From: Candidatus Kaiserbacteria bacterium
GTDB taxonomy: Bacteria > Patescibacteriota > Minisyncoccia > Phycocordibacterales > UBA2100
NCBI GenBank assembly: GCA_016217965.1
Contig: JACRFI010000016.1
Span: 1,837 to 65,836, forward strand
DNA length: 64,000 nt
Direction: 5' to 3'
Shown: positions 5,480-50,205 of the stretch, piece after piece
Layout: each line of letters begins with the position of its first letter
Numbering within the stretch: position 1 is the stretch's first letter
Position numbers and translations under genes: made by a program
The notes under the pieces: model-generated
Told to the model about the DNA's origin: nothing
Databases searched by the model: none
Seen by the model: only the letters and a program-made list of their open reading frames with translations

Positions 5480-5537
5480 ACGGGTGGGTTATAGGTACTA
5501 GCTTCTTGCTGCTAGGTAATGCACAGAGTGTACCAGA

Positions 5538-6743
5538 TTACGCAGCCTCTTTCTCGCTCTTTTCCTCAGGTTTTTCCGCCTCCGTCTCCGTTGGCTTTTC
5601 TTCCGGCAACGATTCAGGAGCTGCTTCTTTTTTCTCTAATGTTTCGCCGCTAGCAGAACGGATATCTATCTTCCATCCCGTGAGGCGGGCTGCGAGGCGC
5701 ACATTTTGTCCGCCACGGCCGATAGCGAGCGATTGCTGGTCTTCCGCGACTTGCACTTCCGCACGGTTTTCGTCTTCAAACAGTTGGATGCCCAGAACTT
5801 GTGCCGGTTTCAGCGCTTCTTTCACGAAGTCTCCCGGATTTTCGGACCATTCGACAACGTCTATTTTCTCGCCGCCGAGTTCCGACGTGACGACCGCGAC
5901 GCGTACGCCGCGTTGCCCGACGAGAGCGCCAACAGGGTCAACGTGCTCGTCCTTCGAAGAAACAGCTATCTTTGCGCGGCTTCCCGGCTCACGAACAATC
6001 CCCTTTGCTTCGACGATCTTGTTAGCCATCTCGGGGACCTCGACTTCAAAAAGTTTTTCGAGGAAGCGAGGATGAGAGCGGGAGAGGCGGATGAATGTGC
6101 CGCGTACGCCTTCGTCCACGCGAAGGAGAAGCGCGCGCACGCGCTCGCCCTGACGGTACCGCTCGCCCGGGATCTGTTCGTCATACGGAAGGATGGCGGT
6201 CGCGCGGCCGAGGTCAACATAGAGGTTGCCACGCTCGAAACGTTGTACGTGTCCCGTTACAATCTCGCCTTCGCGCTCGCCGTATTCGGAAATGATAGAG
6301 CTTCTCTCTGCTTCGCGGATCTTTTGCATGATGACCTGCTTTGCTGCTTGAGCCGCGATACGCCCGAAATCTTCTCGAGTTTCAAGGGGGAACGAAATCT
6401 CTTCATCGAGCTTCGCGTCTTTTTTGATGCGCTTGGCGTCCTCGAGCATGATGTGTTGCTCGGGATTGAAGCGAGAGCGATGGTCGTCATCACCTGTCGG
6501 CTCCTCGTCTTCCTTTCGGACCAGTGTTTCATCTACCACTATTTTTGCCTGGCGAAATTCGATGTCGCCAGTTTGTGCGTTGAACGTCGCACGGATTATT
6601 TGTCCGCGTTTGCCGTATTCGCGGCGATATGCGGCAGCGAGTGCCGTTGCGAGAGCATCGACGACGCTTTCGCGAGAGATGCCGCGCTCCTGTTGGAGCT
6701 CGTCTAGGGCTGCATTAAGAGTTTTGAGGTCGAATAACGCCAT
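5538..6743 (-). CDS. nusA: transcription termination/antitermination factor NusA
   Basis: NusA N-terminal domain, S1 and KH regions recognisable; acidic Lys/Glu-rich tail. Confidence 0.9.
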   Translation of the reverse strand: MALFDLKTLNAALDELQQERGISRESVVDALATALAAAYRREYGKRGQIIRATFNAQTGDIEFRQAKIVVDETLVRKEDEEPTGDDDHRSRFNPEQHIMLEDAKRIKKDAKLDEEISFPLETREDFGRIAAQAAKQVIMQKIREAERSSIISEYGEREGEIVTGHVQRFERGNLYVDLGRATAILPYDEQIPGERYRQGERVRALLLRVDEGVRGTFIRLSRSHPRFLEKLFEVEVPEMANKIVEAKGIVREPGSRAKIAVSSKDEHVDPVGALVGQRGVRVAVVTSELGGEKIDVVEWSENPGDFVKEALKPAQVLGIQLFEDENRAEVQVAEDQQSLAIGRGGQNVRLAARLTGWKIDIRSASGETLEKKEAAPESLPEEKPTETEAEKPEEKSEKEAA

Positions 6744-6856
6744 ATTATAGGTAGCTTCTAGTTGCTAGCTTCAAGTGATTAGTAAAGACAAAATGTACAG
6801 CCTTTTAAAAAAAACGTCCCGCAAGGCGGGACTAAATACATCGCTGTATTCAGCTG

Positions 6857-7408
6857 TTGTGCGAGTGTAGCAGGAAAAAGGTTCTTGTCAAATTTGGTGC
6901 TACACTTTTATGCATGATTAATTCTTCTGAGCCCAAACCACAGGGCGAAACAATTCCTGGCCTGCCGCAAGATTTACAGCTAGTTGGCCGGTATTTCCTA
7001 AGCAAAGTTAAAGACGTCGAATTTGAAATAGGTTACAGAGAAAGAGATAAACGAGCAATCGAGGTTGATCCTACGGAAGAAGAACTGGACATTGAAGAAG
7101 AGGCGAAGATCTTTGGCATGAATAAAAAAGAGCTTGCGGCAGAAAAAGAGCAACGTTTAAATCCGGACAAACTTCAAGAAGAAATCGATGACTTGCGAAA
7201 CGAGCGAGAGTATTATCTTGGGTTACTGGACGGATTAAAGAAGGGTGAGTTCAAGCCATGTATTGATTATTTAAGACAGAGCCTGGAAGCAAAAGAACTG
7301 GCGAAGTCGCTCATAACATTTGAACATACAAGCCCTCAGTACAAGGAGAAAAGTTTGGCAGAAACGCGAGTGTTACGCGAGTATATACGTTTACTAGAGA
7401 GTAAATAG
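6857..7408 (+). CDS. hypothetical acidic coiled-coil protein
   Basis: 183-aa ORF (start may be internal at MINSSEP…); no domain recognised. Confidence 0.35.
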   Translation: MCECSRKKVLVKFGATLLCMINSSEPKPQGETIPGLPQDLQLVGRYFLSKVKDVEFEIGYRERDKRAIEVDPTEEELDIEEEAKIFGMNKKELAAEKEQRLNPDKLQEEIDDLRNEREYYLGLLDGLKKGEFKPCIDYLRQSLEAKELAKSLITFEHTSPQYKEKSLAETRVLREYIRLLESK

Positions 7409-7517
7409 TGAAAATTCCACGCACATTGCCTGCTATACTGTTCATGCGTGCGATTCCACCTCACTGTATGTTGAATTTTCCTAGCAGCTAGAAGCTCGCA
7501 CCTAGAAGCTATCCAAT

Positions 7518-48920: not shown

Positions 48921-48953
48921 GCTGCTAGCTACAAGCTACCAGCTACAAGCTAA
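48921..48953 (+). promoter_or_regulatory. CTAGCT/AGCTAC-type repeat block upstream of tuf
   Basis: 'gctgctagctacaagctaccagctacaagcta'; related blocks at 5505-5530, 6749-6775, 7481-7512, 25884-25912, 50161-50205. Confidence 0.4.
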
Positions 48954-48958
48954 TCTAT

Positions 48959-50158
48959 ATGGCAGCAGAATTTAGTCGAACAAAGCCGCACGTGAACGTC
49001 GGCACGATCGGGCACGTTGACCACGGCAAGACCACTCTTACCGCGGCGATCCTGAACGTGCTCTCGAAAGCGGGCGCAGGGTACACCGCGACAGTGAAAG
49101 GAGTCGATGACATCGACAAGGCGCCGGAAGAGAAGGCGCGCGGCATTACGATCTCGCTCTCTCACTCTGAGTACGAGACGCCGAACCGCCACTACGCCCA
49201 CGTTGATGCTCCGGGCCACGCGGACTACATCAAGAACATGATCACAGGCGCAGCCCAAATGGACGGCGCAATTCTTGTGGTTGCAGCGTCGGATGGCGTC
49301 ATGCCCCAGACGCGTGAACACATTCTTCTCGCACGCCAAGTCGGCGTTCCGAAGATCGTTGTCTTCCTCAACAAGGTTGATCAAGTCGATGACAAAGAGC
49401 TCGTCGATCTCGTCGAAGAGGAAGTTCGCGACTTGCTCGACAAACAAGGATTCGATGGAAAAAATGCTCCGATCATCCGCGGCTCAGGCCTTAAGGCACT
49501 GGAGAATCCGGAGGCGGGTAACGAATGGAGCGGCAAAGTGATGGAACTCGTCAAAGCACTTGATGAGTACATTCCAGAGCCAGTTCGAGAACTCGACAAA
49601 CCGTTCCTCATGGCTATCGAAGACGTGTTCTCGATCGAAGGCCGCGGCACTGTCGTTACGGGTCGTATTGACCGAGGTATCGTGAAAGTCGGCGAGGAAG
49701 TCGAGATCATCGGTATCAAGGATACGGTAAAGACGACAGTCACCGGCGTTGAAATGTTCAACAAGTCCCTTCAGCAGGGCCAAGCCGGCGACAATGCAGG
49801 CGTCTTGCTCCGAGGCACGAAGAAAGAAGACGTGCACCGCGGGCAGGTCCTCGCGAAACCGGGTACCACAAAGCCTCACACTGAATTCGATTCAGAAGTG
49901 TACATTCTGACGAAGGAAGAGGGAGGACGACACACTCCGTTCTTCACCGGTTACAAACCGCAGTTCTACATCAGAACGACGGACGTTACGGGCGAAGTGA
50001 CGCTCAAGGAAGGTGTGGAAATGGTCATGCCTGGCGACACGGTCACCTTCAAGGTAAAACTTGTCGGCCCTATCGCGATGGAAGAGCAGCAACGCTTTGC
50101 TATCCGCGAAGGCGGAAAAACTGTAGGAGCTGGCGTCGTTACAAAGATCAACGTCTAA
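48959..50158 (+). CDS. tuf: elongation factor Tu
   Basis: '[10 protein letters not shown]', 'DAPGHADY', 'NKVD' GTPase motifs; 399 aa. Confidence 0.95.
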
Positions 50159-50160
50159 AA

Positions 50161-50205
50161 TAGCTTCTAGCTTCTAGCTTCTAGCTTCTAGGTGCTAGCT
50201 GCTAG
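50161..50205 (+). repeat. tandem octamer (CTTCTAGC)x4 plus degenerate units directly after tuf stop
   Basis: 'tagcttctagcttctagcttctagcttctaggtgctagctgctag'. Confidence 0.85.

Follow-up and report, generated by a model that had tools for sequence, protein, structure and literature searches.

The stretch of DNA analyzed here, referred to as the window, comprises 64,000 nucleotides (nt) of the forward strand of a Candidatus Kaiserbacteria bacterium (GenBank assembly GCA_016217965.1, contig JACRFI010000016.1, positions 1,837 to 65,836). Among its genes are ppa, nusA, a pilB-type ATPase gene and the EF-Tu gene tuf, all assigned by NCBIfam, as well as a DUF1761 gene assigned by Pfam, which confirmed the gene identities given in an earlier, sequence-only reading of the same DNA. 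Next to these genes lie tandem arrays of short units that recur every 7 nt, hereafter called heptad arrays. Across the window we found about nine of them, all in non-coding DNA and including arrays with cores other than CTA. The repeat blocks which the sequence-only reading had described at ppa, nusA, pilB, DUF1761, tuf and behind tuf were present and far above chance expectation. The weaker copy that it had placed before tpiA (17341-17370) was excluded from the array family because it shows no 7-nt periodicity; that region contains a −10-like box and a GGGAGG Shine-Dalgarno site. An exact match to PilB was not on record in public assemblies. Rfam 15 gave no matches at the gathering score in the window, with only sub-threshold matches to the terminator region around tuf, and no tRNA genes were found in the window.

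The 7-nt period was evident from several counts. The pattern CTA-N4-CTA-N4-CTA matched the window 14 times, compared to 0.12 matches expected from shuffled sequences, and three copies of AGCT, GCTA or CTAG at period 7 yielded 10 to 22 matches on both strands, with none at periods 5, 6, 8, 9 or 10. Tandem Repeats Finder (TRF) made period-7 calls at 7481, 13194, 13861, 13918, 29309, 48927 and 50161. The last of these is the tandem behind the tuf stop codon (50161-50205; 6.4 copies, 92% matches), which had previously been taken for a perfect octamer repeat. It is composed of (AGCTTCT)4 followed by two degenerate units, AGGTGCT and AGCTGCT, with CTAGC at 50167, 50174 and 50181, and the octamer reading was rejected because the period is 7. 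In sense orientation the unit of this genome is (A/C)AGCTA(G/C), degenerate but strictly spaced; AGTCAnn and nATACnn units also occur in the window, and a scan for self-similarity at lag 7 that assumed no core added four arrays (marked in Table 1). Although 93.6% of the window is coding, 34 of 38 distinct periodic positions (45 rows for three cores) were intergenic. Three periodic positions overlie a mis-called TTG start at 25891 and are truly upstream of the DUF1761 ATG, and two weak matches lie inside coding sequence (26294 and 32603). The tetranucleotide CTAG is itself scarce in the window, with 75 occurrences against about 250 expected from length, and roughly a quarter of these fall within the heptad arrays, which together span only a few hundred bases.

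We extended the analysis to two collections of related loci, which are referred to below by locus number (L016 and the like). Set A comprised the window and 80 nusA loci (0.92 Mb; best NusA match 90% identical), and set B was an independent group of 80 tuf loci from metagenomes (0.52 Mb), giving 160 related loci and 1.44 Mb in total. By its NusA relatives, the window belongs with Kaiserbacteria-like Parcubacteria of the candidate phyla radiation. At least four CTA triplets at period 7 were found in 34 arrays of set A, compared to none at periods 4 to 6 and 8 to 11, and in 18 arrays of set B, compared to 0 to 3 at other periods. When each of the 64 trinucleotides was scored as a heptad-periodic core, CTA/TAG ranked first: it formed 52 arrays in the 1.44 Mb, and the control periods 5, 8, 10 and 11 gave none. 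Of 56 regions of lag-7 similarity, 44 were intergenic; repeats at lag 5 or 6, in contrast, were mainly coding. Heptad arrays are lineage-wide in Kaiserbacteria-like and other Parcubacteria genomes, and the earlier description of the motif as genome-specific was wrong. Its suggestion of a dispersed repeat family was correct in that units are alike within one genome, but across genomes only CTA at 7-nt spacing is kept.

The arrays recur at the same genes. Array-led nusA orthologues were found in at least 12 related genomes, array-led pilB orthologues in L016 and L020, and tuf is preceded by an array also in L083, L091 and L114. Other array-led genes of the relatives include ppa, a second pyrophosphatase gene, pilC, pilin genes, rpsL and the gene after tuf. 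Most arrays are imperfect and have 4 to 7 units; perfect ones are (CCCTAGT)4 in L016 and (CTATAAG)4 and (CTAACCT)5 in set B, and a CTGA-core array in L034 includes one TAACTGA unit. Two close pairs of genomes (L020/L032 and L017/L028) differed within their arrays by substitutions and one 6-nt insertion, with the number of units unchanged.

Both orientation and distance relative to the start codon showed clear preferences. Counting only non-palindromic arrays, the start of a long open reading frame (ORF) lay within 30 nt downstream in the CTA-sense direction in 15 cases versus 1 in set A and in 10 versus 1 in set B, that is, 25 arrays point towards a gene and 2 away from it. The distance from the last CTA to the start codon is most often 5 to 6 nt and, in a smaller group of arrays forming another maximum, 12 nt (5 + 7), and the sense strand of the arrays contains 6 to 10% G, compared to 25% overall. 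The nusA leaders of eight genomes could be aligned on the ATG without gaps, yielding the consensus ACTA.T..CTA....CTA....CTA....CTA....TATG. In this alignment the CTA register to the ATG is constant, and pairwise identity is 0.83 in the CTA columns compared to 0.30 in the spacer columns. Mismatches were similarly concentrated in a few contiguous columns in the arrays from the core-free scan (z = 4.8; none of 2000 permutations as extreme). This pattern of core and spacer speaks for selection on the core and fits a reader that recognizes a few bases every 7 nt, at defined distances from the start codon.

Several simpler accounts of the CTA core were tried and rejected. Single-copy CTA as a general ribosome-binding signal fails for lack of positional enrichment before ordinary genes. 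Sense stop codons in all three frames cannot be the selected feature, as a purine follows CTA in only 57% of units and many leader arrays contain at most one sense stop. A string of −10 boxes is equally untenable for CTA arrays, since the T needed to complete TAnnnT is the base least often found at its position (11 of 102 units); G follows CTA in 35 of 102 units. Broken units with CTG or TTA, which would be a mark of wobble-tolerant RNA-RNA pairing, were few. A CTA codon at Leu3 of nusA, in phase with the array, was counted by hand in 6 of 12 cases compared to about 8 of 33. A separate observation concerns the ATAC-type heptads (CATACTn/TATACTn), which resemble a tandem of the lineage's −10 box plus one base. 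They occur in the window at 29316-29344 (minus strand), in L017 (2457-2493) and L005 (1249-1279), and before pilC in L020 and L050, and they hint that some arrays were born by 7-nt duplication of a −10 region.

Predicted promoters generally lie upstream of the arrays. The nusA array is placed within a transcribed leader because the predicted nusA promoter is upstream of it, and −10 boxes are likewise predicted before the ppa and DUF1761 arrays (Table 1), 3 nt before the pilB array of L016 (TATAAT) and 7 nt before the ppa array of L023 (TACTAT). Other arrays occupy short gaps between co-directional genes (13199-13229 and 13863-13878) or lie between a stop codon and a terminator-like hairpin, as behind tuf in the window and twice in L062. 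The likely tuf terminator was not listed by a strict terminator scan because its tail window has fewer than five T. Given the upstream promoters and the intercistronic and stop-to-terminator sites, we infer that the arrays reside in transcribed but untranslated sequence.

The genes with arrays stand out against a background that appears largely leaderless. A TAnnnT hexamer peaked at positions −12 and −13 from starts (68 and 35 of 552 genes, compared to a background of about 7), with only slight enrichment of GGAG/GAGG, and in the relatives this peak was about tenfold over background. Such leaderless-type boxes (often TATACT, TACACT or TAGACT) end 6 to 7 nt upstream of the start codon, as at 47056-47075, 25834-25850 (minus strand), 29361-29381 and 45939-45958 (minus strand). 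Of 64 genes in the window, 26 looked leaderless, 3 looked Shine-Dalgarno-led and 8 were preceded by a period-7 array. Most first-in-operon genes of the window thus look leaderless by their sequence, and these counts suggest that leaderless transcripts prevail in the Kaiserbacteria-like lineage and that Shine-Dalgarno sites are seldom used there. None of 16 array-led genes had GGAG, GAGG or AGGA at Shine-Dalgarno distance. Tuf leaders of candidate phyla radiation (CPR) type likewise had no Shine-Dalgarno site, whereas non-CPR tuf loci from the same search carried AGGAGG 7 to 9 nt upstream. The arrays are G-poor and contain no GGAGG, and they show no complementarity to the canonical CCUCC core of the 16S 3′ end. 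With leaderless genes dominant and Shine-Dalgarno sites rare, the arrays fall in the leaders of a minority of genes that are leadered and Shine-Dalgarno-less. Many of these are presumably abundant (tuf, nusA, ppa, sod and the pilus genes), and CTA arrays probably stand in for the usual ribosome-binding signal.

Table 1. Heptad arrays and neighboring predicted elements in the window
Feature	Positions	Strand	Sequence or remark
ppa leader array	5493-5520	-	ACCTAGC AGCAAGA AGCTAGT ACCTATA, then 9 nt, ATG at 5479
ppa predicted extended −10	5535-5527	-	TGgTACACT; upstream of ppa array
nusA leader array	6750-6785	-	TTACTAA TCACTTG AAGCTAG CAACTAG AAGCTAC CTATAAT, then ATG at 6743
nusA terminator-like hairpin and T-run	6816-6832	-	between nusA promoter and array
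nusA predicted promoter	6864-6891	-	TTGACA-16-TGnTACACT; consensus match
pilB leader array	7479-7512	+	CCTAGC AGCTAGA AGCTCGC ACCTAGA AGCTATC, then CAAT, ATG at 7518
AGTCA-core array before pilin-like gene at 13230	13194-13227	+	core-free scan; pairs with inverted array at about 13245-13280; Pfam N_methyl
AGTCC-core array	13858-13878	+	core-free scan; occupies the 16-nt gap before the gene at 13879
Inverted (GACTCAT) array	13916-13954	+	core-free scan; pairs with 13858-13878 register by register; overlaps probable pilin leader peptide MTHDCSRSSRG
DUF1761 predicted −10	25862-25867	+	TACACT; upstream of DUF1761 array
DUF1761 leader array	25885-25912	+	GCTACTT GCTAACA GCTACAA GCTATTT, then GCGT, ATG at 25918
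ATAC-core array before superoxide dismutase gene sod (28705-29292)	29300-29337	-	core-free scan; CATACCG CATACCG TATACTG AATACCA AATACGA
tuf leader array	48920-48953	+	AGCTACA AGCTACC AGCTACA AGCTAAT, then CTAT, ATG at 48959
Post-tuf-stop array	50160-50205	+	six CTAG at period 7; reverse complement of usual leader unit
Likely tuf terminator	50209-50232	+	G+C-rich hairpin AAAACCCGCCgagaGGCGGGTTTTCT with flanking A and T runs; directly after post-tuf array

The earlier description of the blocks as self-complementary proved to reflect mostly AGCT/CTAG palindromes. Folding beyond that of shuffled sequences was seen for the post-tuf array (−20.9 kcal/mol, z = −2.5) but not for the single leader arrays of tuf, nusA, ppa, pilB and DUF1761, whose minimum free energies gave z values between −0.95 and +1.3. 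With these values near those of shuffles, the low structure of the arrays comes from base composition and not from arrangement, and arrays designed as either structured or unstructured RNA were rejected as an explanation. The pilin-like leaders behaved differently. There the start region lies between an array and its inverted counterpart, which pair unit by unit into long interrupted hairpins, in the window at 13185-13300 (−28.8 kcal/mol, z = −2.6) and 13850-13975 (−29.7 kcal/mol, z = −2.3), and in a pilin leader of L016 at 770-885 (−35.5 kcal/mol, z = −3.1). In the two pilin-like genes of the window (13230-13300 and 13879-13975), which are adjacent, the mature N-terminus (MTFIE or VTIIL) is preceded by a probable leader peptide that is nearly the same in both, MTHDCSRS(S)RG. 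Since this leader peptide is partly encoded by the inverted array, translation probably does not begin at the annotated upstream ATGs. Inverse complementarity was also observed between the two arrays in 3′ untranslated regions (UTRs) of L062 (7912-7947 and 9223-9262), each of which is followed by a terminator. They are reverse complements over about 20 nt (AACTAAGCACTAAT[A/G]ACTG) and flank a 1.3-kb two-gene segment, so that a cassette boundary or long-range RNA pairing is possible.

The 5′ end of the presumed nusA transcript (6816-6857, minus strand) carries a predicted G+C-rich hairpin and T-run right behind the strong promoter, an arrangement kept just upstream of nusA in dozens of relatives (loci L003-L050). 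This hairpin could be a NusA-sensitive attenuator, and hence autoregulatory, or a 5′ stabilizer. A similar hairpin and T-run is found before fusA (about 32560-32590), before rpsL (about 31195-31225) and in the tuf leader (48766-48786). In the DUF1761 leader, a mini-ORF of six codons (25877-25897; ATG AGT AAT GCT ACT TGC TAA) begins about 3 nt past the predicted transcription start and ends within the array. It is possibly a near-leaderless upstream ORF and has no counterpart in the other leaders.

We tentatively favor, at somewhat less than an even chance, the view that the arrays are an RNA-level leader element which supports or gates Shine-Dalgarno-independent translation and is read by a factor with a 7-nt register. 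Strand bias, depletion of G from the sense strand, location past the predicted −10 boxes, occurrence between cistrons and in 3′ UTRs, and a constant register relative to the AUG together argue for action as RNA, and it is this evidence that makes a leader for Shine-Dalgarno-independent initiation the favored function. The protein-binding site suggested by the sequence-only reading thus remains plausible, but the evidence favors RNA over DNA as its substrate. The sequences themselves show the anatomy of the arrays, their 7-nt periodicity, orientation, register and conservation, and their position relative to predicted promoters; that they are transcribed, act as RNA and serve translation, and that a reading factor of some kind exists, is deduced from these features. 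Under this model, 4 to 7 tandem units, each with a short core (usually CTA) at exact spacing and otherwise drifting bases, would be transcribed and would form the 5′ leader or intercistronic gap of genes that are neither leaderless nor Shine-Dalgarno-led, in the window tuf, nusA, ppa, pilB, sod, DUF1761 and the pilin-like genes. As RNA, the array would be poor in G and have little structure, and it would hold its CUA triplets at set distances from the AUG, the final one usually ending 5 nt upstream. A factor that reads single-stranded RNA at 7 nt per step would bind the array and then either load the ribosome or gate access to the start codon. Candidate readers might be a cold-shock-domain or S1-like OB-fold protein, a TRAP/HutP-like ring oligomer or the 30S subunit itself. 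In the pilin-like leaders, the inverted pairs would zip into a long interrupted hairpin and probably add control by processing or occlusion.

A number of observations weigh against this view. Cores vary between loci of one genome (AGCTA, AGTCA and ATAC in the window), which is awkward for a single sequence-specific reader. Two arrays, one in each locus set, face the wrong way relative to the nearest gene, an example being the TAG-sense array in the L116 tuf leader. Some arrays are found in 3′ UTRs ahead of terminators and could not sensibly take part in translation initiation. The association with highly expressed genes that had been proposed earlier holds for tuf, nusA and ppa, but rpsL, rpsG, fusA and tig carry no arrays in the window. 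At sod, unlike at the other arrays, one unit coincides with a predicted −10 box, and all promoters and −10 boxes used here are predictions by consensus match. A single CTA showed no enrichment at a fixed position before ordinary genes, in an analysis dominated by nusA orthologues. No cold-shock motif or gene, and hence no candidate reader, was found in the window and the 80 nusA loci (0.92 Mb), and a 16S 3′ end was present in none of the nusA or tuf loci retrieved. Finally, the observations fit an enhancing role of the arrays as well as a repressing one. A bolder form of the same idea, which we regard as possible but rather unlikely, is a so far undescribed mode of initiation or gating in Parcubacteria, in which a dedicated factor or a feature of the reduced ribosome reads CUA every 7 nt in fixed AUG register. 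It would be the counterpart of the Shine-Dalgarno interaction in a leaderless clade, and the TAACTGA heptamers of Beggiatoaceae and the MTYCTGA heptamers of Geobacter would follow the same principle.

Among the competing explanations, the arrays could be RNA operators for an oligomeric repressor or attenuation protein of the TRAP/HutP kind, which would bind CUA and block the ribosome or switch a neighboring terminator, so that abundant genes are co-regulated and translation is not promoted. This we consider unlikely, even though the arrays do show a triplet core with free spacers at fixed spacing. The arrays adjoin start codons, and terminator-like hairpins are adjacent to them before the nusA array and after the post-tuf and L062 arrays. 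HutP reads UAG-N4-UAG-N4-UAG, with a period of 7 nt, and TRAP sites overlap the trpG ribosome-binding region. The conserved sense triplet of the arrays is, however, CUA and not UAG, with G following in about a third of units, and no such protein was identified in the 64 kb of this genome. Furthermore, tuf and rpsL have to be translated at very high levels, and no ribosome-binding signal other than the array is seen before them; the array must therefore at least permit efficient initiation.

That the arrays are by-products of replication slippage favoring 7-nt units, kept merely as G-poor unstructured spacers with a functionless periodicity, appears quite improbable to us. It would account for the differing cores between loci and for those arrays that are perfect and hence probably recent, namely, the (AGCTTCT)4 behind tuf and the perfect arrays of L016 and set B. 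In addition, many bacteria are reported to have heptamers as their most frequent long simple repeats (Mrazek 2007, cited in PMC4679880). The pattern nevertheless does not fit slippage products that decay neutrally, because decay is uneven, with core columns kept and spacers free, the register to the ATG is constant in eight genomes, and the close genome pairs differ by substitutions and not by unit number. The dominance of CTA among the 64 possible cores is equally unexpected for such by-products.

We judge it very unlikely that the arrays are DNA operators for a repressor of contiguous 7-bp repeats, acting as a roadblock just past promoters in the manner of the ribbon-helix-helix protein omega of plasmid pSM19035. 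Omega operator heptads have the sequence WATCACW, and the arrays resemble them in that their 7-bp units follow one another without gaps, in the size of the core (about 4 bp) and in lying near promoters, in the case of sod even over a predicted −10 box. Yet the strong orientation bias and the G depletion of the sense strand would be surprising for a DNA site, as would arrays in intercistronic gaps and 3′ UTRs; the units of an array all have the same direction and lie downstream of the −10 box, not over the −35 box. The chance that the arrays serve as complementary RNA tags in cis or trans, for example with the tuf 3′ UTR array and its terminator forming an antisense RNA against the pilB, nusA and ppa leaders, seems to us remote. 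The reverse complement of the post-tuf array does share CTAGCAGCTAG and CACCTAGAAGCTA with the pilB leader, the cis inverted pairs of the window and L016 fold well, and the two L062 arrays are complementary. But the trans case is the only one in the window, most arrays have no partner, and in relatives post-tuf arrays simply precede the next gene in sense orientation; since CTAG is palindromic, some complementarity also comes free. Least probable of all is a promoter or UP element, as the sequence-only reading had suggested, or a related phase-variation switch via unit number: arrays do lie upstream of abundant genes, the sod array holds a predicted −10 box, pilus genes are typical targets of phase variation and Haemophilus influenzae is known to use a heptamer, the (ATCTTTC)n repeat of the hmw 5′ UTR, as a switch (PMC12721329), but the arrays are downstream of predicted −10 boxes or sit in intercistronic and stop-to-terminator positions, their bases disfavor completion of TAnnnT, most are too degenerate for slipping, and tuf, nusA and ppa are housekeeping genes. 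Phase variation is accordingly unlikely for the degenerate arrays of housekeeping genes and possible for perfect arrays and pilus genes.

A few further features of the window were noted. Directly downstream of tuf lies a phd/doc-type toxin-antitoxin pair (50299-50932) with a strong predicted promoter of its own (TTGACA-16-TAGAAT, 50242-50269). Doc toxins inactivate EF-Tu by phosphorylation, and this adjacency is curious in view of that activity. Insertion of phd/doc may have cut the post-tuf array off from its original downstream gene. The ORF at 6857-7408 (plus strand; 183 amino acids, TTG start) has no family match and is perhaps not a real gene, because the predicted nusA promoter lies in its first 35 nt on the opposite strand. 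Within the coding region 38575-39858, five copies of AACACA followed by 2.4 copies of a 21-mer (39229-39302) imply a low-complexity protein segment rich in Asn, Thr and Gln.

Much of bacterial diversity belongs to the CPR, whose members have reduced ribosomes and, with few exceptions, have not been cultured; to our knowledge their translation initiation is essentially unstudied. As far as the CPR/Patescibacteria literature could be searched, neither such arrays nor a predominance of leaderless genes had been described. In the Kaiserbacteria-like lineage, heptad-spaced CUA arrays precede some of what are presumably the most abundant genes. If they do recruit or gate ribosomes, they would represent a new class of translation signal, provide a handle on the decade-old puzzle of start-codon heptamers in Beggiatoaceae, cyanobacteria and Geobacter, and improve gene-start prediction and the design of expression vectors for CPR organisms. 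Synthetic RNA would allow a direct test even of the descriptive result, a conserved core with free spacers whose register to the ATG is fixed.

Among known systems, omega operators have 7-bp contiguity in common with the arrays, but not the WATCACW unit, the mixed orientation or the promoter overlap. TRAP and HutP are ring oligomers that bind regularly spaced triplets with free spacers, near terminators or ribosome-binding regions. HutP RNA shares the 7-nt spacing of the CPR arrays, but its triplet is UAG and theirs is CUA (in tuf CTAC, CTAC, CTAC and CTAA), and TRAP RNA (GAG/UAG with 2- to 3-nt spacers) has a period of 5 to 6, at which no CPR arrays were found. Both proteins serve a single pathway, whereas the CPR arrays serve many unrelated housekeeping genes. 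In H. influenzae, the (ATCTTTC)n repeat of the hmw1A 5′ UTR is transcribed and pairs with a complementary arm into a long hairpin that is cut by RNase III, and it has at least 11 perfect units and acts through a change in copy number (PMC12721329). This hairpin is resembled by the array-against-array hairpins of the pilin-like leaders only, and not by the tuf, nusA, ppa, pilB or DUF1761 leaders; unlike the hmw repeat, CPR arrays usually have no partner arm, and their few units are mostly imperfect.

Related heptamers have been described in Nostoc PCC 7120, where they lie contiguously near start codons and deletion data suggest an influence on transcription-factor access (bioRxiv 10.1101/2022.06.06.494920), and in Geobacter metallireducens, where five MTYCTGA units stand in tandem (PMC2700814). 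Both were proposed as global regulatory elements, with the partner not identified in either study. Like the CPR arrays they are found near promoters or starts, but their unit sequences differ, and an analysis of register to the ATG and of core versus spacer, as given here for the CPR arrays, has not been reported for them. The closest precedent is provided by the TAACTGA heptamers of marine Beggiatoaceae, which also occur in some cyanobacteria and Bacteroidetes (MacGregor 2015, PMC4679880). In Beggiatoaceae, 2 to 6 tandem copies, nearly all intergenic and amounting to about 170 sets per genome, lie in forward orientation directly upstream of starts and replace the Shine-Dalgarno sequence, including before ribosomal protein genes (PMC4679880). 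According to work reviewed in the same article, one CspB protein is bound per heptamer. The CPR arrays are likewise tandem, intergenic and in gene sense a few nucleotides before a start that has no Shine-Dalgarno site, and their density in the window extrapolates to a similar order per genome. Unlike in Beggiatoaceae, where the unit is a fixed TAACTGA and related heptamers are rarely repeated, the arrays described here belong to a CPR lineage dominated by leaderless genes and keep only a core of 3 to 4 nt (mostly CTA, at some loci AGTCA or ATAC) together with the 7-nt spacing.

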